Shown here: positions 4,045 to 12,804 of the stretch, in pieces | Numbering within the stretch: the first letter of the stretch is position 1 | How the letters are laid out: every line of letters begins with the position of its first letter | Assembly: GCA_900316795.1 (NCBI GenBank) | Contig: ONEF01000015.1 | Span: forward strand, 40,519-64,518 | Length of the DNA: 24,000 bases | Direction of reading: 5' to 3' | Origin: an uncultured Bacteroidales bacterium | GTDB lineage: Bacteria > Bacteroidota > Bacteroidia > Bacteroidales > UBA932 | Translations under genes and position numbers: made by a program | The notes under the pieces: model-generated | The model's database searches: none | The model's input: the letters and a program-made list of their open reading frames with translations, nothing else | What the model was told of the DNA's origin: nothing

Positions 4045-4141
4045 AACAAATTATTAATGGTAACACGGGTATATGTACCCTAATCGGTGCAATTTACAAA
4101 AAATCTCGCTATGTGCGTAACTCTTTTTGCGGCAATGCTAT

Positions 4142-4149
4142 TATCTTTG
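4142..4149 (+). promoter_or_regulatory. Candidate Bacteroides-type -7 promoter box (TATCTTTG) for recG
   Basis: Exact match to the published Bacteroides -7 consensus TAnnTTTG, 25 nt upstream of the ATG at 4174. It lies downstream of the GTG at 4087 used by the ORF track. Confidence 0.4.
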
Positions 4150-4173
4150 CAATGGAGCATCATCGCTGAGACT

Positions 4174-6354
4174 ATGACAGATATCCTTGACACCGACATA
4201 AAATACCTTCCCGGAATAGGACCTAAAAGAGCAGAGCTGCTTTCCAAGGAGATTGGAGTGCATACGTTCAGGGATATGCTTTACTATTTCCCTTTCCGAT
4301 GGATAGACAAGAGCAAGGTTTATCCGATTTCCAGCATCGCAGGAGACGATATGCCTGATGGTGAAGACACCCCTTCTTCTTCCTATGTCCAGGTAAGGGG
4401 GATAGTCACAAAGAAAGAAACCGCAGGTATGACCGGCGGAAGGGTTGCCAGAGGCAAGAGCCGCCTGATTGTCACCTTGCAGGATGCCACAGCAAGTATC
4501 GAGATGGTGTTTTTCAGCGGCTTGAAGTGGATCAACGAAAAACTGGAACAAGGTCAGGAATACATAGCCTTCGGAAAGCCTACCGTATTCAACGGGCATG
4601 TGAATCTTGTGCATCCTGAAGTTTACCGCCCCTCGGAAGCAGCCACTTACGGAACTGGATCAATGGCAGGCATTTACTCCATAACAGAAAGGATGAAGAA
4701 CGGAGGGTTCGGCATAAAGGCCATAACCAAAGTGGAAAGTGTCCTGCTGGAGAAGGTAAAGGGTCACATCAAGGAGACTCTTCCTCCCGGCATCATCCGT
4801 GACAAAGGACTCTGCTCCTTGGAAACAGCGCTTGTGAACATCCATTTCCCTTCCGGACAGAGAGAACTTGAAGAAGCCCAGAGAAGACTGAAGTTTGAAG
4901 AGCTGTTCTACCTGCAGCTCAGCCTGCTGAAGCAGAAAAACGCCAGGCTTTCCAAAGGCACAGGCATAATGATGACCAGGGTCGGAGACAATTTCAACCG
5001 TTGCTATCAGTCTCTGCCATACCCGCTTACAAATGCGCAGAAGCGGGTAATTAAGGAGATGAGGGAAGATATGCGGAGCGGAAAGCAGATGAACCGCCTC
5101 CTGCAGGGAGATGTCGGATCCGGCAAAACCCTGGTTGCGGTCCTGCTCTCGCTGATTGCTGTTGACAACGGCTACCAGGCCTGCATAATGGCCCCTACGG
5201 AAGTTCTTGCCAACCAGCATCTTGCCAGCATATCCAAGTTTCTCAAAGCCACGGATGCCAAAGTGGCTCTTCTTACCGGAAGCACAAAGGCAAAGGACAG
5301 GAAGCAGATTCTCAGCGACCTTTCCGACGGCACCATAAACATCATAGTGGGAACCCACGCCTTGATTGAAGACAGGGTGAAGTTCCACTCCCTGGGACTG
5401 GCAATCATTGATGAACAGCACCGCTTCGGAGTTGACCAGAGAAGCCGCCTGTGGAGCAAGAACGACGACTCCCTGGGGCAAACCCCTCTTCTTCCGCACA
5501 TAATGGTAATGACTGCCACCCCTATCCCAAGGACTTTAGCCATGACGCTGTACGGAGACCTGGATGTCAGCATCATAGACGAACTGCCTCCAGGCAGGAC
5601 ACCGGTTGTCACCCAGCATGCCTGGGAGAGCCAGAGAAGGCAGGTTTTCGATTTCATGAAAGCGCAGATAGATTCAGGGCGACAGGTCTTTGTGGTTTAT
5701 CCTCTGATAAAGGAAAGCGAAAAGATGGACTACGAGAATCTGGAAGAAGGATATTTGCGCATCGTGGAGGAGTTCAAGGCCCCTGAATACATAACTGCCG
5801 TGGTACACGGCAAGATGAAACCGGAAGACAAAGACATAGACATGCAGCTGTTCGCGTCCGGCAGAGCTGACATCCTTGTAGCTACCAGCGTCATAGAAGT
5901 TGGTGTTGATGTGCCTAACGCTTCCGTGATGGTCATAGAGAGCGCAGAGAGATTCGGCCTCAGCCAACTTCACCAGCTCCGCGGAAGGGTTGGAAGAGGA
6001 GCGGCAAAGAGCTACTGCATCCTGATGAGCGGATACAAGTTGAGCAAAGAAAGCCGGAAACGTCTGGAACTGATGTGCAAGACCACCGACGGGTTCCTGC
6101 TTGCTGAAGAAGACATGAAGATGAGAGGCCCTGGAGATCTGGAAGGCACATCCCAAAGCGGCCTGGCCATTGACCTGCATATTTCCTCCCTTTATCGCGA
6201 TGGAAGGTACCTTGAATCCGCCCGCCGGACCGCCCTGGATATTCTGGATAAGGACCCTCTCCTGCAATCAGCTGAGAACCACCTGTTGACTGAGCAGCTC
6301 AGGATTTTGCGCAAAGAAGGAAAAGACGTCAAAGACTACTCTTCAATCAGCTGA
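4174..6354 (+). CDS. recG: ATP-dependent DNA helicase RecG
   Basis: Wedge-domain N-terminal region followed by SF2 motifs GDVGSGKT, DEQHRFG, TATPIPRTL and QLRGRVGRG. I moved the start to ATG 4174 (MTDILDTDIKYLPG...). The 29 upstream codons are hydrophobic non-RecG sequence and contain the candidate promoter. Confidence 0.93.
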   Translation: MTDILDTDIKYLPGIGPKRAELLSKEIGVHTFRDMLYYFPFRWIDKSKVYPISSIAGDDMPDGEDTPSSSYVQVRGIVTKKETAGMTGGRVARGKSRLIVTLQDATASIEMVFFSGLKWINEKLEQGQEYIAFGKPTVFNGHVNLVHPEVYRPSEAATYGTGSMAGIYSITERMKNGGFGIKAITKVESVLLEKVKGHIKETLPPGIIRDKGLCSLETALVNIHFPSGQRELEEAQRRLKFEELFYLQLSLLKQKNARLSKGTGIMMTRVGDNFNRCYQSLPYPLTNAQKRVIKEMREDMRSGKQMNRLLQGDVGSGKTLVAVLLSLIAVDNGYQACIMAPTEVLANQHLASISKFLKATDAKVALLTGSTKAKDRKQILSDLSDGTINIIVGTHALIEDRVKFHSLGLAIIDEQHRFGVDQRSRLWSKNDDSLGQTPLLPHIMVMTATPIPRTLAMTLYGDLDVSIIDELPPGRTPVVTQHAWESQRRQVFDFMKAQIDSGRQVFVVYPLIKESEKMDYENLEEGYLRIVEEFKAPEYITAVVHGKMKPEDKDIDMQLFASGRADILVATSVIEVGVDVPNASVMVIESAERFGLSQLHQLRGRVGRGAAKSYCILMSGYKLSKESRKRLELMCKTTDGFLLAEEDMKMRGPGDLEGTSQSGLAIDLHISSLYRDGRYLESARRTALDILDKDPLLQSAENHLLTEQLRILRKEGKDVKDYSSIS

Positions 6355-6388: not shown

Positions 6389-6396
6389 TAAATTTG
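6389..6396 (+). promoter_or_regulatory. Candidate -7 promoter box (TAAATTTG) for the 6427-12267 operon
   Basis: Exact TAnnTTTG match 30 nt upstream of ATG 6427. It is the only sizeable intergenic gap before six tightly spaced genes. Confidence 0.4.
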
Positions 6397-6426: not shown

Positions 6427-7074
6427 ATGAATACTAAAGAACAATTTGTGATCACAATCGCCCGTGAAATTGGATCCGGAGGACGCACCGTCGGCCGCAA
6501 ACTTGCTGAAAAACTTGGAGTCAGATACTCTGACAAAGAACTTATCAGAGCACTGAGAGAAAAGTTCGACCTTACAACCTATGGAATCGAGAAACTGAAA
6601 GCAGAAAAGAAAAGCTGGCTGGCAGACCTGATAAACAAGGTTGCCCCGGTCCCTAAACCGGAAATGCTCATGGATACCGACAAGAAGTTTACCCAGAGCC
6701 TCCGTTCAGAAGCCACCACAGACGCGGTGTTCAAAGCAGAGACTGAGATCCTGAAGGCAATCGCGGAGGAAAGTTCATGCGTCATTGCCGGCAGAAGCGG
6801 ATTCTTTGTGCTCAACGGGCATCCTAACAAACTTGACATCTTCATTACCGCTTCAAAGCCTAACCGCATCAAGAGGGTTGTCAGAAAACAGCACCTGACA
6901 GAAACCGAGGCGGAAACAATCATAGATTCAGTGGATGAAGGCCGTGACAACTACGTAAAACGCTACACGGGCAAAAGCCGCTATGATGCAAGGAACTACG
7001 ATATCGTTCTCAATGCAGACGGCCACACTGAACAGCAGCTTGTCGATATCATCCTTTCATACATTAAAGAATAA
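6427..7074 (+). CDS. Cytidylate-kinase-like family P-loop protein (function unknown)
   Basis: 215 aa. The N-terminus ITIAREIGSGGRTVGRKLAEKLGVRYSDKELI matches the pattern of the Cytidylate_kin2-type family (degenerate P-loop GSGG). The stop overlaps the next start by 1 nt (TAATG at 7072-7076). Confidence 0.75.
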   Translation: MNTKEQFVITIAREIGSGGRTVGRKLAEKLGVRYSDKELIRALREKFDLTTYGIEKLKAEKKSWLADLINKVAPVPKPEMLMDTDKKFTQSLRSEATTDAVFKAETEILKAIAEESSCVIAGRSGFFVLNGHPNKLDIFITASKPNRIKRVVRKQHLTETEAETIIDSVDEGRDNYVKRYTGKSRYDARNYDIVLNADGHTEQQLVDIILSYIKE

Positions 7075-8195
7075 TGGACCCAACCGTCAGCATGGATTCC
7101 CACTGCCAGGCAATAATCCAGGAATTCAGAGACAACCTTCCCGTTTTCAAGAAAGTCAGTTTTGAGATCAAAGACCTTCTTGAAAAGATGATTTCAGGCT
7201 GCGGCAAGGTTCATACAAATCTTGAAAACCAGCTCAAGGCCAAAGATCTGACGGGAGCCGGCATTCACGTGGCTTCCATTGAGTCAAGGGTAAAGGCAGA
7301 AGAGTCCCTTGCCGGTAAACTGGAACGCAAAGGCAATAAATACAAGTCTTTGGCAGACATCACGGACATCATCGGCCTGAGGGTGATAACCTTCTACATA
7401 GATGACGTGGACAAGGTGGCATCCGCCATTGAAAAGCTGTTTGAGATAGACTGGGAAAACTCCGTGGACAAGAGAAAGCTGCACCAGATAGACAGTTTCG
7501 GTTACCTCTCACTGCATTATATCTGCAAACTTCAAGACTTCCCGTACAGATTTGAGATCCAGTTGCGTACAGTTCTCCAGCATGCCTGGGCCAACATGGA
7601 TCACGATACGGGCTACAAGTCAGGGGTGGAGATACCGATGCAATACAGGAGAGCCATGAACCGTCTGGCTGGAATGCTGGAATTAATTGACGATGAGTTC
7701 AGCAAGATGCGTTCAGAGCTGACTGATTACAGAAGGAGCGTCCACAATCTGGTAGCATCCGGAAAACTGGACGAAGTCCCTCTTGACGGAGACACTTTCA
7801 GGAGTTATCTGGAACTCAAGCCTTTCGACAATCTCAACCGCCGGATAGCGTCCATGAACCAAGCTGAGATCCAGTCGGTCTCACTGATGAACTATCTGGC
7901 TATTTTCAAGGGATTGGGTTGCAAGACACTCGGAGACATAGACAAAATCATAAAGAAGTATTTTGAAGCAGCATACCAGATAGCCTGTTACCAGCTTGGG
8001 CTTACGGACCTTGACGTCATATCAGCTTCCCTGGGGCCTCAGAATCTCTGCATCGCCTACGTGTTGAAGAACGACGGCGGGAAGGCTGGTGTGCGGTACC
8101 TTTATGAACTGATTAACGGAACTTCCAACGGCAGCGAAATATGGGCCGAAATGATTATGGACCAAGCCCGCGATCTTCCTTTCATGAACAAGTAG
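7074..8195 (+). CDS. RelA/SpoT-domain small alarmone synthetase (SAS) with an unassigned C-terminal domain of about 170 aa
   Basis: 373 aa with all five synthetase blocks visible: SRVKAEESLAGKLERK, DIIGLRVITFY, FGYLSLHY, EIQLRTVLQHAWA and HDTGYK. I cannot assign residues from about 205 to 373 to any family. Confidence 0.85.
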   Translation: MDPTVSMDSHCQAIIQEFRDNLPVFKKVSFEIKDLLEKMISGCGKVHTNLENQLKAKDLTGAGIHVASIESRVKAEESLAGKLERKGNKYKSLADITDIIGLRVITFYIDDVDKVASAIEKLFEIDWENSVDKRKLHQIDSFGYLSLHYICKLQDFPYRFEIQLRTVLQHAWANMDHDTGYKSGVEIPMQYRRAMNRLAGMLELIDDEFSKMRSELTDYRRSVHNLVASGKLDEVPLDGDTFRSYLELKPFDNLNRRIASMNQAEIQSVSLMNYLAIFKGLGCKTLGDIDKIIKKYFEAAYQIACYQLGLTDLDVISASLGPQNLCIAYVLKNDGGKAGVRYLYELINGTSNGSEIWAEMIMDQARDLPFMNK

Positions 8196-8199
8196 AACT

Positions 8200-8790
8200 A
8201 TGGCAAACAAACCTCTCGATACAAAACTGCTGGACAAGGCAATCATCTTCGCCGTAAAGGCTCACGCCGGAACGGAGAGAAGAGGAAAAGGCTTTCCTTA
8301 CATCGTGCATCCGATGGAGGCTGTAGAAATTGTCTCCACGATGACCTCAGACCAGGAACTCCTTGCCGCCGCTGCCCTCCACGACACCGTGGAAGACACT
8401 TATGTCACAATAGACCTCATACGGAAAGTGTTCGGAGACCGCATAGCAGACATCGTGGAAGCTGAAAGTGACAAAGGGGTAAACGACAAAAGCGCTGAAG
8501 CCAGCTGGCATGAACGCAAGAAGGCTGCCATAGACAGGCTGGCCAAGGCTCCTTTTGACGCTAAATTGGTGGCGCTGGGAGACAAGCTCTCCAACATGAG
8601 GGCAATCGCACGGGATTATTCCATAAGAGGAGATGAACTGTGGAAAATATTCCACACCAACGACCGCAAAGACCACGAATGGCACTACAGGGGCCTGGCG
8701 GAATCGCTGAGAGAACTTGAAGACACTTTTGCTTACAAAGAGTTCGTAACCTTGATAGACCAGGTTTTCGGAAAGAGCCATGACACTTAA
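8200..8790 (+). CDS. HD-domain (p)ppGpp-hydrolase-like small alarmone hydrolase (SAH, Mesh1/SpoT-hydrolase type)
   Basis: 196 aa. It carries KAHAGTERRGKGFPYIVHPMEAV followed by AAALHDTVEDT (the H...HD...D metal site of the RSH hydrolase domain). It starts 4 nt after the SAS stop. Confidence 0.85.
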   Translation: MANKPLDTKLLDKAIIFAVKAHAGTERRGKGFPYIVHPMEAVEIVSTMTSDQELLAAAALHDTVEDTYVTIDLIRKVFGDRIADIVEAESDKGVNDKSAEASWHERKKAAIDRLAKAPFDAKLVALGDKLSNMRAIARDYSIRGDELWKIFHTNDRKDHEWHYRGLAESLRELEDTFAYKEFVTLIDQVFGKSHDT

Positions 8791-9640
8791 AACAAACAAT
8801 AAAAAACAGATGGATCCTATCAGAATATCCCTAGACGACTATACCCTTTCCGGCGGCGGCGCCAACGGGGAGAGCTATGACAACAAGACAGACCCTTCTG
8901 TGATGCTGAAACTTTACTTTCCCGGCATGATAGAACAGCCTCTGAACGAAATGCTGCTTGCCAGGAAAGTATATGACCTTGGCATACCTACCCCAAAGCC
9001 AGGAGATTACGTCATTACCGAAGACGGGCGCTACGGTATCCGTTTCCACAAGATAGAAGGTAAGGTTTCATATTCCAAGGCAACCAGCCTGCATCCTGAA
9101 AATGTGGGGCAATATGCCTCGGAGTTCGCCCGTATGTGCCTGGACCTGCACTCGATGCATATAGACACATCGCTGTTTGAAAGCGTAAAGAAACGCTACT
9201 TCAAGCTTCTGGAAGACAACCCGTTCTTCACTCCAAAAGAAAAGGACAAGATAGGAAAGTTCATCGCTGACACTCCTGACGAAGACACCCCTATCCACGG
9301 AGATCTCCAGTACAGCAATGCCATCTTTGCAGGAGACAAACGTTATTTCATAGACTTGGGAGATTTCTCCTGGGGGAACCACCTGTTTGACGTTGCAATG
9401 GTATATCTTTGCTGCTATCTCAGCGATCCTGCATTCATACTGGAAACCTACCATCTGCAGAAACCTTTGGCAATGAAGTTCTGGGACTGCTTTGCACCGG
9501 TTTATTTCGGCTCCGGCGTTCCATTGAAAGATATCGAAGAAATGATTATGCCTTATGCCGGCCTCAAGACACTTATCATTGAAAGAAACACACGCCGGCC
9601 TATGCCAGAATTCAGGGCTGCACTAAAAAGCATATTATGA
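8780..9640 (+). CDS. Phosphotransferase, aminoglycoside/choline-kinase (APH) fold
   Basis: 286 aa with kinase catalytic loop IHGDLQYSN and metal-binding FIDLGDF. The start is either ATG 8780 (11-nt overlap with the SAH gene) or ATG 8810. The stop overlaps the next start (ATGA at 9637-9640). Confidence 0.8.
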   Translation: MTLKTNNKKQMDPIRISLDDYTLSGGGANGESYDNKTDPSVMLKLYFPGMIEQPLNEMLLARKVYDLGIPTPKPGDYVITEDGRYGIRFHKIEGKVSYSKATSLHPENVGQYASEFARMCLDLHSMHIDTSLFESVKKRYFKLLEDNPFFTPKEKDKIGKFIADTPDEDTPIHGDLQYSNAIFAGDKRYFIDLGDFSWGNHLFDVAMVYLCCYLSDPAFILETYHLQKPLAMKFWDCFAPVYFGSGVPLKDIEEMIMPYAGLKTLIIERNTRRPMPEFRAALKSIL

Positions 9641-11910
9641 AAAGTAGAGAGAAAATAAGGTCCGATTTCAAAAAGATAAAGGACGCTGCTTCAGAAAGAT
9701 CAATGAAAAAGAAGTCTTTCTGGACAGGCTTGGTTCTGATAGCCTTTGCGGCAGTTTTCCTGGAAGCCATTTCCCTTCTACAGGCGCACTATGCCAAGAA
9801 AGGAGTGAGGACCGAGGCTATAGCCAGGGCTGAAAGCCAGCTGAACTCGACCCGCAACAACATCCTGAATATTGTCAACCAGGTTGAAAGTGCGGTCAGG
9901 AACACCGTATGGGTAGCCCAGTGGTGCCTGGATGTTCCGGACAGCCTCCAAAACATCCCCAAGCTGATAGTAAACAACAACCCGATAGTAGCCGGTTCCA
10001 CGATAGCGCTTGTGCCAGGCTATTACAAAGACCGTCCTTTATATGCGCCTTATTCTGCCATCACAAACGGGGAGATTATGGACAAGACGCTGGCAACTCC
10101 AGAATACGACTACCCGTCAAAGGAGTGGTTCACAAAACCAATAGAAAAGGAAAAAGACTACTGGTCAGAACCATATATAGACACCGGAGGCGGAGAAATC
10201 CTGATGACAACATATTCCGTTCCTATCCGAGACAAGACCGGCCGCATAGCAGCTGTCCTTACAGCGGACCTGGATCTGGAATGGCTTTCCACACTTGTTG
10301 AAGGCCTGAAAATCTACCCTAGCGCCTTCAGCACTGTAGTCAGCCGCACTGGACAGATTATGGTCAGCCCGGCAGAAACACTGGTGATGAAAACCAACAT
10401 CAACGAATTTGCATCATCCGTCAAAGACTCCAATGACCTTAAGAAGCTCAACGCCGCAATGCTCAACAGAGAAAGCGGAAATATGCTGATCACGCACGAA
10501 GGCGAGAAGAACATGGTACTGTTCGGCCCTATAGACAGGACCGGCTGGGCTATCAACGTATTCATTCCTGAGAAGGAGATATTTGCCAACCTGGACAAGC
10601 TCAGCAGTTTCATAAGGATTCTCCAGCTGCTTGGACTCGTGCTTCTGTTCCTGATAATGAGATCGGTAGCCAACAGCCAGATCCGTTTCAAGGCTATCAA
10701 CGACAGAAAAGAAAAGATGGAAAACGAGCTCCACATAGCCAGCAGGATCCAGATGTCCATGATTCCGAAGATATTCCCTCCGTTCCCTACAAGGAAAGAC
10801 ATAGACATGGCGGCAGACATTGTTCCAGCCAAGGAAGTTGGTGGAGACCTGTATGACTTTTTCATCCGCGACGAGAAACTTTTCTTCTGCATCGGGGATG
10901 TATCAGGCAAGGGAGTGCCTGCATCTATGGTAATGGCCGTGACACGCAGCCTCTTCCGCAGCGTGTCCACCCGGGAAGACAACCCGGCAGACATAGTTTC
11001 TTCCATCAACGACAGCATGTCTGACATGAATGAAAGCAACATGTTCGTAACCTTCTTCTGCGGAGTTCTCAATCTGTCTGACGGGACTCTGAAGTACTGC
11101 AACGCAGGCCATAACGCTCCTCTTATACTCACTGACAGAATAGAGTGCCTCAATGTCGTACCTAACCTGCCTATAGGAGTTCTCAAAGGTATGGGCTACC
11201 AGCAACAGGAGACTTCTCTAAAATACGATGACGCCATCTTCCTCTACACAGACGGCATAACAGAAGCCGAGAACCTGAAACACGAACAGTTTGGCCTGAC
11301 CCGGCTCAAGAACACCCTCTCAGGCAGGAAAGCCTCAATTGAACATCTCAAGAATGTACAGACGGCTGTGTCAAAGTTCGTGGACGGAGCGCCTCAGAGC
11401 GATGACATGACTATGCTGTTCATCCACTACCTCAACAGCAACATAATGGTGGCAGGAGGCACTCCGGAGGCCAACAACGGCTTGAACGATAACTCTGACA
11501 GTTCATACAGCTTGCGCATCACCAATGACATACAGCAGATACGCAAACTTTCCGAACTTATAGACAAAATCGCTGAGGAAAATAAAATCTCCAACCAGCT
11601 CCACTCCAGCATAAATCTTGCAGTGGAAGAAGCCGTGACCAACGTAATATGTTATGCGTATGGAGAAAAGAAGAACATGCCTATAGACATAAACGTTTTC
11701 GTCCGTGAGGGAGAGATAAAATTTGACATCGAAGACTCCGGCAAACCATTCGACCCTACGGCAGCACCTAAGGCCAACACCGCCTCAGATGCTGACCAGC
11801 GCCAGGTAGGAGGCTTGGGAATACATTTGTTCAAAAACATAATGGACAGCGTAAACTATTCATACAGAGACGGCAAAAACATATTGTCATTGACAAAGCG
11901 CTTTATCTGA
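9637..11910 (+). CDS. Membrane sensor fusion: Cache-like periplasmic domain, then PP2C/SpoIIE phosphatase, then RsbW-like HATPase serine kinase
   Basis: 757 aa. TM1 is FWTGLVLIAFAAVFLEAISLL. A Cache-like region follows (EWFTKPIEKEKDYWSEPYIDTGGGEILMTTYSVPI), then TM2 LLGLVLLFLIM. The PP2C/SpoIIE block is AKEVGGDLYDF...IGDVSGKGVPASMVMA...YTDGITEA...DDMTML. The C-terminal HATPase_c_2 block is EEAVTNVICYA, DSGKPFD, GGLGIHL. Confidence 0.85.
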   Translation: MKSREKIRSDFKKIKDAASERSMKKKSFWTGLVLIAFAAVFLEAISLLQAHYAKKGVRTEAIARAESQLNSTRNNILNIVNQVESAVRNTVWVAQWCLDVPDSLQNIPKLIVNNNPIVAGSTIALVPGYYKDRPLYAPYSAITNGEIMDKTLATPEYDYPSKEWFTKPIEKEKDYWSEPYIDTGGGEILMTTYSVPIRDKTGRIAAVLTADLDLEWLSTLVEGLKIYPSAFSTVVSRTGQIMVSPAETLVMKTNINEFASSVKDSNDLKKLNAAMLNRESGNMLITHEGEKNMVLFGPIDRTGWAINVFIPEKEIFANLDKLSSFIRILQLLGLVLLFLIMRSVANSQIRFKAINDRKEKMENELHIASRIQMSMIPKIFPPFPTRKDIDMAADIVPAKEVGGDLYDFFIRDEKLFFCIGDVSGKGVPASMVMAVTRSLFRSVSTREDNPADIVSSINDSMSDMNESNMFVTFFCGVLNLSDGTLKYCNAGHNAPLILTDRIECLNVVPNLPIGVLKGMGYQQQETSLKYDDAIFLYTDGITEAENLKHEQFGLTRLKNTLSGRKASIEHLKNVQTAVSKFVDGAPQSDDMTMLFIHYLNSNIMVAGGTPEANNGLNDNSDSSYSLRITNDIQQIRKLSELIDKIAEENKISNQLHSSINLAVEEAVTNVICYAYGEKKNMPIDINVFVREGEIKFDIEDSGKPFDPTAAPKANTASDADQRQVGGLGIHLFKNIMDSVNYSYRDGKNILSLTKRFI

Positions 11911-11964: not shown

Positions 11965-12267
11965 ATGAAGATCAACACCAAAAGACAAGAAGGCATCGTG
12001 ACCGCCGAACTCGTCGGCAGACTTGATACCCCCGCATCGCAGGAAGTTGGAAACGACCTGCTGGTCCTTCAGAACGATGCAGACAAAACCATTATTCTTG
12101 ACTGCACAGCCTTGGAATACATCTCATCTTCAGGATTGAGGCTTTTTCTCACTCTCAGGAAAGCCGCCAGCCAGAAAGGCGGCAAAGTCATTGTGAAAAA
12201 CATAAATGACGACATCCGAAGCGTCTTTATGATGACAGGCTTTTTGAACTTGTTTGAGATTATTTGA
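11965..12267 (+). CDS. STAS-domain anti-sigma-factor antagonist (SpoIIAA/RsbV-like)
   Basis: 100 aa with ELVGRLDTPAS and ALEYISSSGLRLFL (conserved phospho-acceptor Ser context). Preceded by an A-rich leader. Confidence 0.9.
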   Translation: MKINTKRQEGIVTAELVGRLDTPASQEVGNDLLVLQNDADKTIILDCTALEYISSSGLRLFLTLRKAASQKGGKVIVKNINDDIRSVFMMTGFLNLFEII

Positions 12268-12299: not shown

Positions 12300-12340
12300 A
12301 AAAAAAGGGGTGACCAGTAATTTGGCCACCCCCTTTCTGT
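12300..12340. terminator. Bidirectional rho-independent terminator between the convergent STAS and hsp20 genes
   Basis: AAAAAA-GGGGTGACCA-gtaatt-TGGCCACCCC-TTT. A 10-bp GC-rich stem (one mismatch) is flanked by an A-run and a T-run, so it can terminate both strands. Confidence 0.6.
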
Positions 12341-12366: not shown

Positions 12367-12804
12367 CTACTTGACCTCTATCATCCTGTGCTCTTCTGTC
12401 TTAGGCTCCTTCACAATCTTAGGGAGATGAACATTCAAGACACCGTTCTCCATCTTTGCCTCAATCTTCTCCCTATCCACGTCGTCAGGCAGAACCAGAC
12501 TCTGATGGAACTTCTCGTAAGAGAATTCACGCCTCAGGAACCTACCCTTCTTTCCACCCTCTTTCTCTTTGTTCTCGGTCTTCTTCTCCATATTGATTAC
12601 AAGGTTACCCTCGCTGTCGAGCTGAATCTTGAAGTCCTCCTTTGAAAGGCCTGGAGCCGCAAGTTCAAGTTCGTACTCTTTTTCGTTTTCAATTACATTG
12701 ATGGCAGGAGCCGTATAATTTGTCCTTTCCATCCAGCTGTTGTCGAAGAAATCATTGAATATCTCTGGCAGCCAGCTATTTGAAGTTCTTCTTACAGGTA
12801 GCAT
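12367..12804 (-). CDS. Hsp20/alpha-crystallin family small heat-shock protein
   Basis: 145 aa with an alpha-crystallin domain pattern: AINVIENEKEYELELAAPGLSKEDFKI, FLRREFSYEKFHQSLVLPDDVD, ENGVLNVHLPK. Confidence 0.93.
   Translation of the reverse strand: MLPVRRTSNSWLPEIFNDFFDNSWMERTNYTAPAINVIENEKEYELELAAPGLSKEDFKIQLDSEGNLVINMEKKTENKEKEGGKKGRFLRREFSYEKFHQSLVLPDDVDREKIEAKMENGVLNVHLPKIVKEPKTEEHRMIEVK

Follow-up and report, generated by a model that had tools for sequence, protein, structure and literature searches.

A small alarmone synthetase and its hydrolase as the probable output of a partner-switching module in Bacteroidales

The stretch of DNA analyzed here, referred to below as the window, comprises 24,000 nucleotides of contig ONEF01000015.1 (positions 40,519 to 64,518 of the forward strand; assembly GCA_900316795.1) from an uncultured Bacteroidales bacterium. 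It carries a gene for a small alarmone synthetase (SAS) of 373 aa, followed by one for a small alarmone hydrolase (SAH), and both belong to one tightly packed plus-strand operon that encodes, in this order, a cytidylate-kinase-like (CMK-like) kinase, the SAS, the SAH, an APH-fold kinase, a membrane protein joining a Cache sensor to a PP2C phosphatase and an RsbW-type kinase, and a STAS protein. A preliminary description of the window had seen in the adjacent SAS and SAH genes the layout of a toxin-antitoxin system of the toxic SAS (toxSAS) type. The analysis presented here favors another explanation, to which we assign a probability of about two in three: judging from gene content and sequence comparison, the two enzymes would be the enzymatic output of a partner-switching signaling module, and not a free-standing toxin-antitoxin pair.

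Conservation of the module and its switch genes

The genomic context of the SAS was surveyed by tblastn with the window proteins on 80 Bacteroidales loci that harbor SAS homologues of 51-78% identity, and partners lying within 7 kb of the SAS were counted in the 56 loci having at least 5 kb on either side. The SAH is found beside the SAS in 53 of these 56 loci, and the APH-fold kinase, the PP2C/kinase protein (PK) and the STAS protein in 52 each. All four partners occur together in 49 loci, in at least 10 gene orders, among them SAS-SAH-APH-PK-STAS (19 loci), PK-STAS-SAS-APH-SAH (15 loci), SAS-PK-STAS-SAH-APH and SAS-CMK-SAH-APH-PK-STAS. Despite many rearrangements in the Bacteroidales of rumen and gut, these five genes stay linked, and the genes that flank them at the related loci are not conserved.

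Concerning the toxSAS/antitoxin layout, the neighborhood of SAS and SAH holds, as the above frequency of the SAH shows, but the pair is embedded in a module of five to six genes. It does not behave as a two-gene unit either, since the switch genes are about as constant as the SAH (52 versus 53 of the 56 loci). The SAH directly adjoins the SAS in 48 of the 80 loci, and the two are often parted by module genes, as in SAS-APH-SAH, SAS-CMK-SAH and SAS-PP2C/kinase-STAS-SAH. A conserved operon of two or three genes, made of a SAS and its antitoxin, characterizes toxSAS systems (Jimmy et al. 2020); what is conserved here is SAS, SAH, APH, PP2C/kinase and STAS, in 49 of 56 loci.

A FastTree phylogeny of 80 sequences places the SASs of the module in one clade (SH-like support 100). 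Its sister clade (SH-like 96; 35-43% identity), which holds the protein P0142 and a fusion of SAS with an HD_4 domain, is also accompanied by STAS, PP2C and kinase genes, as seen in a metagenome scan seeded with that clade; one of its loci (L185) reads SAS-STAS-PP2C-kinase. Among the 29 metagenome loci whose flank reaches 4 kb or more, switch genes are present in 23 and the SAH in 20, with both in 16, switch genes only in 7 and the SAH only in 4.

The simplest arrangement, which came from the same scan, is a minimal cassette (L219:6215-8089) that consists of an RsbW-like kinase of 144 aa, a STAS protein of 101 aa and a SAS of 370 aa. Its flanks are unrelated (an ABC transporter on one side, an M20 peptidase/Na-H exchanger on the other), and neither PP2C nor SAH nor APH is found within 7 kb. 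By its gene content, this cassette has the rsbW-rsbV-sigB layout, with a SAS replacing the sigma factor. Gene fusions point in the same direction. The 521-aa protein P0122, a single record, joins a HATPase_c_2/RsbW-like kinase, 45% identical to that of the window, to a SAS of the module clade, and may be taken as indirect support for a contact of the kinase or the STAS protein with the SAS. Further fusions link SAS to HD_4 (P0157, 528 aa, also a single record) and HD_4 to the APH-fold kinase (L104:9722-11077; 469 aa in genome G090).

Two loci of the survey are described for their own sake. One carries two successive pairs of Cache-PP2C-kinase and STAS genes after SAS-SAH-APH (L043:10465-15435), an arrangement which, read from its genes, would amount to two sensors per one enzyme set. 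The other is a contig labeled 'uncultured Ruminococcus sp.' (L050) with the full module at 64% SAS identity; its neighbors in the ranking are all Bacteroidales, and the label is probably a binning error, or possibly the sign of a transfer.

The sensor of the window (9637-11910, plus strand) is a membrane protein of 757 aa. As its hydrophobic segments indicate, a transmembrane helix at residues ~28-48 is followed by the periplasmic Cache domain, a second transmembrane helix at ~327-345, the PP2C domain at 412-597 and the RsbW-type serine kinase at 625-757. The corresponding Pfam matches are MCP-like_PDC_1 (E 5.5e-29) and dCache_1 (6.6e-16), SpoIIE (6.6e-48) and HATPase_c_2 (3.2e-23). The STAS-only protein, of the anti-sigma-antagonist type (11965-12267, plus strand, 100 aa; PF01740, E 1.3e-17), bears the motif Y-I-S-S-S-G-L with its phosphorylatable serine. 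Read by eye, the parts of the switch look active, with the serine of the SSSG stretch in the STAS protein, the N-box and G-box of the kinase and the Asp motifs of the PP2C domain in place. Hence, all components of a partner switch of the RsbU/RsbV/RsbW type are encoded: the PP2C phosphatase, the GHKL serine kinase of the RsbW type and the STAS protein, in which the serine is conserved. What differs from the classical arrangement is the sequestered output: no sigma factor takes that place here, and in the minimal cassette it is occupied by a SAS. Pfam searches and the annotation of the flanks reveal no sigma factor in the operon or beside it in the window.

Above the Pfam cut-off, STAS, SpoIIE and the RsbW-like kinase domain each occur exactly once in the genome to which the window belongs (92.75% complete), all three within the operon, and a genome of a sister genus in the same family has neither the SAS nor SpoIIE. 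That PP2C and the SAS might occur exclusively together within the order was considered and rejected: of 151 genomes, 112 have SpoIIE, 13 have the SAS family (E <= 1e-3) and only 3 have close homologues.

The mechanism that we propose would begin with a ligand of the periplasmic Cache domain, which would change how the fused PP2C and kinase domains balance each other, and this balance would set the phosphorylation of the STAS serine. The state of the STAS protein would then decide whether the SAS is held inactive or released, and two ways of control can be envisaged: the kinase domain might bind the SAS in the manner of an anti-sigma factor, or the STAS protein itself might do so, in the manner of HsbA, SiaC and VapS. 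The C-terminal domain of the SAS would likely serve as contact, docking or auto-regulatory surface. With ATP as donor, the active SAS would pyrophosphorylate a purine nucleotide, most likely GDP/GTP to give (p)ppGpp, and the SAH would degrade this product and reset the signal.

The synthetase and its C-terminal domain

The catalytic part of the SAS (7074-7754, plus strand) comprises the RelA/SpoT core and a long C-terminal helix. That the core is complete, as originally described, is borne out by Pfam: the RelA_SpoT profile (PF04607) matches residues 71-184 over positions 1-111 of its 113, with 74.4 bits against a cut-off of 27 (E 1.1e-20), which places the protein in the RelA/SpoT synthetase superfamily. 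In an alignment of 50 relatives, R72, K74, K82, D98, R103, Y144, H148, E161 and Q163 are invariant, among others; aligned to RelQ and RelP, these residues are the ATP-phosphate, Mg and acceptor-base (G-loop) positions.

RelQ and RelP are also the best solved relatives of the SAS (phmmer E 1e-13 to 1e-10 over residues 30-222). Placement relied on profile search against solved structures, and the profile of the 50 relatives reaches RelQ/RelP at 1e-25 to 7e-22, CapRel at 2e-7, the long Rel enzymes at 3e-3 and FaRel2 at 5e-3. Foldseek with the full SAS model gives the same ranking, 5DEC and 6EX0 being matched at 1e-9, and the TM-score of this model against the CapRel structure 7ZTB is 0.34. In this profile search, the non-toxic RelQ/RelP enzymes are thus far closer than the solved toxSAS (1e-25, versus 2e-7 for CapRel and 5e-3 for FaRel2).

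In its synthetase fold, catalytic residues and long C-terminal helix, the SAS agrees with these enzymes of Firmicutes (SAS1/SAS2, YjbM/YwaC). It differs from them in an additional domain of 146 aa and in the partner-switch genes of its operon, and the RelQ allosteric motif LAMNFWAT (as listed in PMC10434055) is replaced by LQHAWANM. Assignment to the RelQ (YjbM) equivalog NF053588 was rejected (56.8 bits versus a cut-off of 320). A match to PDC-S33 of PADLOC was likewise not taken as membership, since only the catalytic core is matched, in the SAS and in distant relatives alike, and no PADLOC system model fits the module. The genome also encodes two long RelA/SpoT homologue (RSH) proteins that have HD domains; such a pair is usual in Bacteroidia (PMC3153485), which makes the SAS an accessory enzyme, third in number.

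The C-terminal domain of the SAS (residues 228-373; 7755-8195 on the plus strand including the stop codon, coding part 7755-8192) matches no family, as the preliminary description had it. Its extent is smaller than the 170 residues given there, about 146 aa, because residues ~185-225 still align to the C-terminal helix of RelQ/RelP. The AlphaFold2 model of the full-length SAS (pLDDT 91.8) shows the core, followed by a long helix (189-228) and then by a compact domain (239-372) that consists mostly of helices. Modeled alone with 43 sequences, residues 228-373 yield a pLDDT of 91.3 and a pTM of 0.86, with about 10 helices and two short strands. Across the module clade the alignment has an invariant I-A-x-x-N-Q-A-E motif at residues 258-265.

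None of the searches places this domain. Its 43 members give nothing in Pfam at E <= 1 beyond scattered noise, the best fold matches reach E 2.4 (Foldseek, PDB), Z 4.4 (VIA-align wide, 48,161 chains) and E 1.9 (Foldseek, BFVD), the domain was not found in proteins of at least 654 aa, and in the protein atlas it meets unnamed 'GTP pyrophosphokinase' clusters only, at 0.76. The structure prediction and fold search suggested at the outset thus deliver a confident fold that matches no Pfam family, PDB chain or BFVD model. The domain is real and conserved; matches to known folds are absent in PDB and BFVD, which by itself does not prove the fold novel. As to a C-terminal antitoxin or sensor domain of the CapRel type, the domain modeled alone has no CapRel match in Foldseek PDB or VIA-align, although a missing match does not exclude the fold. 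Likewise, none of the 43 sequences matches a Pfam TPR at E <= 1 and no TPR protein is among the structural matches, and the helices are irregular (4 to 23 residues, with two short strands), as opposed to TPR repeats of 34 residues. Going by the model, neither the TPR of DsRel nor the pseudo-zinc-finger of CapRel can be recognized in it.

The earlier suggestion that the extra domain is regulatory remains plausible, with no known family matched, and a docking or regulatory part of the SAS is what the sequence makes likely. More specifically, and more tentatively, since we consider this somewhat less probable than its opposite, the domain could be a new receiver for partner switching, through which the RsbW-type kinase or the STAS protein would hold and release a RelA/SpoT-type synthetase, so that a Cache ligand would directly gate alarmone synthesis.

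Distant relatives of the same two-domain build occur as well. In IMG/VR, on prophage-like contigs (L105-L165), stand-alone SASs of 350-375 aa with 33-49% identity lie beside genes for AbiC-like proteins, large terminase and C5 DNA methylase, and they may represent a separate, defense- or phage-related use of the two-domain enzyme.

Hydrolase, accessory kinases and limits of the operon

The SAH (8200-8790, plus strand, 196 aa) matches HD_4 (PF13328) with 75.9 bits against a cut-off of 27.2 (E 3.8e-21), as expected for a small alarmone hydrolase, and has the motifs H37, H61-D62, E65-D66 and DKLSNMR. Its nearest structures are those of the RelH/MixSpo type, namely 7QOE (1.2e-21, residues 8-168), 4YF1 (1.5e-20) and 7QOC (3.2e-18), with Mesh1 (9e-14) and the Pseudomonas SAH farther away. 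The original label of a Mesh1/SpoT-type hydrolase is hence right at the level of the superfamily, while at closer range RelH/MixSpo takes the place of Mesh1 itself.

The two remaining kinases of the operon are accessory. The APH-fold kinase (8780-9640, plus strand; PF01636, E 2.4e-12) belongs with the TIGR02172 family, to which it scores 208 bits, under the cut-off of 228. Among eight module parts compared by distance matrices in 66 loci, the strongest pair is this kinase and the STAS protein (r 0.89, partial 0.60; kin are not independent), which may hint that the kinase acts on or with the STAS protein, or may be an artefact of clade structure, and is taken as a lead only. The CMK-like P-loop kinase (Cytidylate_kin2; 6427-7074, plus strand) matches PF13189 (E 1.3e-44) and the 'putative kinase' 3HDT of the PDB (E 4e-23). 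It is a variable member of the module, present in 11 of the 80 related loci at differing positions, and bears a weak resemblance to the kinase that is fused to viperin in some proteins (PADLOC pVip-kinase, E 3.3e-5).

The open reading frames and domain searches define a series of plus-strand genes that overlap or are separated by very small gaps, which starts with recG (4087-6354, plus strand), directly before the CMK-like gene; upstream of the operon lie the housekeeping genes pgi, gpsA, rnhA, pdxA and recG. The stop codon of the CMK-like gene and the start of the SAS gene share 1 nt (TAATG), so that the two genes are coupled in translation here. The gap of 4 nt between SAS and SAH noted originally is confirmed, with the SAS stop codon TAG at 8193-8195, the spacer AACT at 8196-8199 and the ATG of the SAH at 8200. 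The APH-fold kinase gene overlaps the SAH gene by 11 nt and the sensor gene by 4 nt.

A candidate promoter box of the Bacteroidetes -7 type, TAAATTTG (6389-6396, plus strand), was read from the sequence 30 nt upstream of the CMK-like gene, the first of the operon; it matches TAnnTTTG, the -7 consensus of Bacteroides promoters. At the other end, a hairpin with a 10-bp stem and one mismatch was read by eye at 12307-12333, between the STAS gene and a convergent gene; it is followed by T7 when read on the minus strand, and by TTTCTGTT when read on the plus strand. It is likely the end of the operon, and it was not picked up by the consensus terminator scan. In the scan for sigma-70 promoters and terminators, the number of sites is no higher than in shuffles. 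The convergent gene, which ends at the hairpin, encodes a small heat-shock protein Hsp20 (12367-12804, minus strand); Hsp20 is a neighbor in 4 of 80 related loci.

Alternative explanations and relation to known systems

Several observations weigh against reading the SAS and SAH as the output of the switch. SpoIIE phosphatases are widespread among the genomes of the order (112 of 151), and partner switches therefore also exist without a SAS and serve other outputs. A few loci have the SAS alone, or SAS and SAH only (L040, L032). The distant two-domain relatives of IMG/VR, at 33-49% identity, stand alone without switch genes or SAH; hence the two-domain enzyme is older than its coupling to the switch, and its C-terminal domain is not exclusively a device for docking to it. 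Judging from the sequences, this domain must have a function independent of the switch, e.g. autoinhibition or oligomerisation. Finally, in an exploratory mirror-tree analysis of the 66 loci, in which kin are not independent, the domain has no special matrix correlation to the STAS protein (partial r 0.04) or the kinase (-0.02).

The main rival is a growth-arrest or defense module resembling vapKSC, which we regard as unlikely. The SAS would then be a toxic effector, acting by synthesis of (p)ppApp, by overproduction of (p)ppGpp or by pyrophosphorylation of tRNA, with the STAS protein as antitoxin, the kinase and phosphatase timing its release and the SAH as a second, enzymatic safety. The kinase-STAS-effector layout of the minimal cassette indeed parallels vapKSC, where a STAS antitoxin is present and the toxin is freed by phosphorylation (PMC13373217), SAHs are pan-antitoxins of toxSAS (PMC7229694), and, in prophage-like contigs, genes for AbiC, terminase and C5-methylase neighbor the distant SAS relatives of equal length. 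However, a periplasmic Cache domain with a PP2C phosphatase suits an external chemical signal better than the detection of phage or DNA damage, and the synthetase profile is far nearer to RelQ/RelP than to CapRel or FaRel2. Nor do the surroundings fit: only ~10 of 129 flanking proteins at 21 loci in other genomes match any PADLOC model, these flanks are not defense islands, and the genes that follow the operon in the window do not accompany the module elsewhere. The SAH is missing from some loci, no PADLOC system model fits, and the PDC-S33 match concerns the catalytic core only. A plain type IV toxSAS/SAH pair that merely happens to lie inside a signaling operon is a far weaker candidate and seems very improbable. 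It could claim the 4-nt gap, the SAH that adjoins the SAS in 48 of 80 loci and the SAH antitoxin of FaRel (PMC7229694), but this is not a mobile two-gene unit, with APH, CMK-like or switch genes intervening in many loci; moreover, the SAH is RelH-like, the synthetase RelQ/RelP-like, and the genome has its two long RSH proteins with HD domains too.

The link between switch and enzymes might also be one of co-expression only. The switch would then target something else in the genome, while SAS and SAH share its promoter, so that the capacity for alarmone turnover rises without protein contact. Similar Cache-PP2C proteins in many Bacteroidales genomes that lack this SAS, and distance matrices with no special SAS-STAS or SAS-kinase signal, are in line with this. 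The linkage, however, outlasts at least 10 rearrangements and reaches the sister clade at 35-43% identity, the minimal cassette is made of kinase, STAS and SAS and nothing else, and a natural kinase-SAS fusion exists. No further STAS, PP2C or RsbW-like kinase that could serve another target is encoded in the genome, and no sigma factor lies nearby. Co-expression alone appears quite improbable, and a partner switch acting on the SAS is the explanation we retain.

Partner switches that act on enzymes are known from Pseudomonas aeruginosa. In its HptB-HsbR-HsbA-HsbD system, a partner switch gates a diguanylate cyclase, and HsbR fuses PP2C and RsbW-type kinase in one chain, as does the sensor of the window. 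In SiaABCD, from the same species, a PP2C phosphatase, a serine kinase and a STAS-type protein also gate a diguanylate cyclase (PMC8457831). The module described here would be alike in that the switch gates the synthase of a nucleotide messenger instead of a sigma factor, a role proposed from its genes. The outputs differ: cyclic di-GMP in the Pseudomonas systems, and here a RelA/SpoT-type pyrophosphokinase with its own hydrolase and a periplasmic Cache input. In vapKSC, the STAS protein binds the VapC effector and phosphorylation of the conserved serine frees it (PMC13373217), and the three-gene layout of kinase, STAS and effector parallels the minimal kinase-STAS-SAS cassette. Its effector is a PIN RNase, its kinase senses single-stranded DNA and has a STAS domain of its own, a phosphatase is absent and the genes often lie near defense genes, whereas the module of the window has a Cache sensor, a PP2C phosphatase and a hydrolase, and no habit of residing in defense islands.

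On the side of the alarmone enzymes, the closest parallel for the domain architecture is DsRel/Tde-SAS of Treponema denticola, which likewise has a non-catalytic C-terminal domain (~150-180 aa). There, the domain is a TPR that brakes synthesis, the enzyme is non-toxic and a SAH is encoded in the same genome (PMC10434055); in the SAS of the window no Pfam TPR signature is present, and irregular helices with two short strands are predicted instead. The Tde-SAS and Tde-SAH genes lie apart (TDE1711 and TDE1690) with no partner switch mentioned (PMC10434055), while SAS and SAH are adjacent in the window. The toxSAS enzymes (FaRel, FaRel2, PhRel, PhRel2 and CapRel) combine a RelA/SpoT domain with a neighboring gene that neutralises it, a SAH in the case of FaRel, and CapRel has a fused C-terminal regulatory domain similar in size to that of the SAS (PMC7229694, PMC11782079). 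SAHs neutralise all toxSAS tested (PMC7229694). These gene sets comprise two or three genes, as compared with the five to six of the module.

A search of open-access papers and preprints retrieved no report linking a partner switch to an alarmone synthetase. Each ingredient has its precedent, i.e. regulatory C-terminal domains in SASs, a messenger synthase controlled by a switch and gating by kinase and STAS; their combination was not found in the literature searched.

The activation of SASs is largely unexplained outside transcriptional control and the allostery of RelQ. If the proposed coupling is true, the module would provide a defined route by which a periplasmic sensor governs the synthesis of alarmones in abundant anaerobes of gut and rumen, and a widespread domain without known fold would gain a role. 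Besides sigma factors and diguanylate cyclases, partner switching would have outputs of a third class. For the annotation of such loci it follows, as a caution, that an adjacent SAS-SAH pair is not always a toxin-antitoxin system. For the Bacteroidales of gut and rumen, the proposed coupling would mean a ribosome-independent phospho-switch route into (p)ppGpp-type signaling, with a dedicated hydrolase as its reset.

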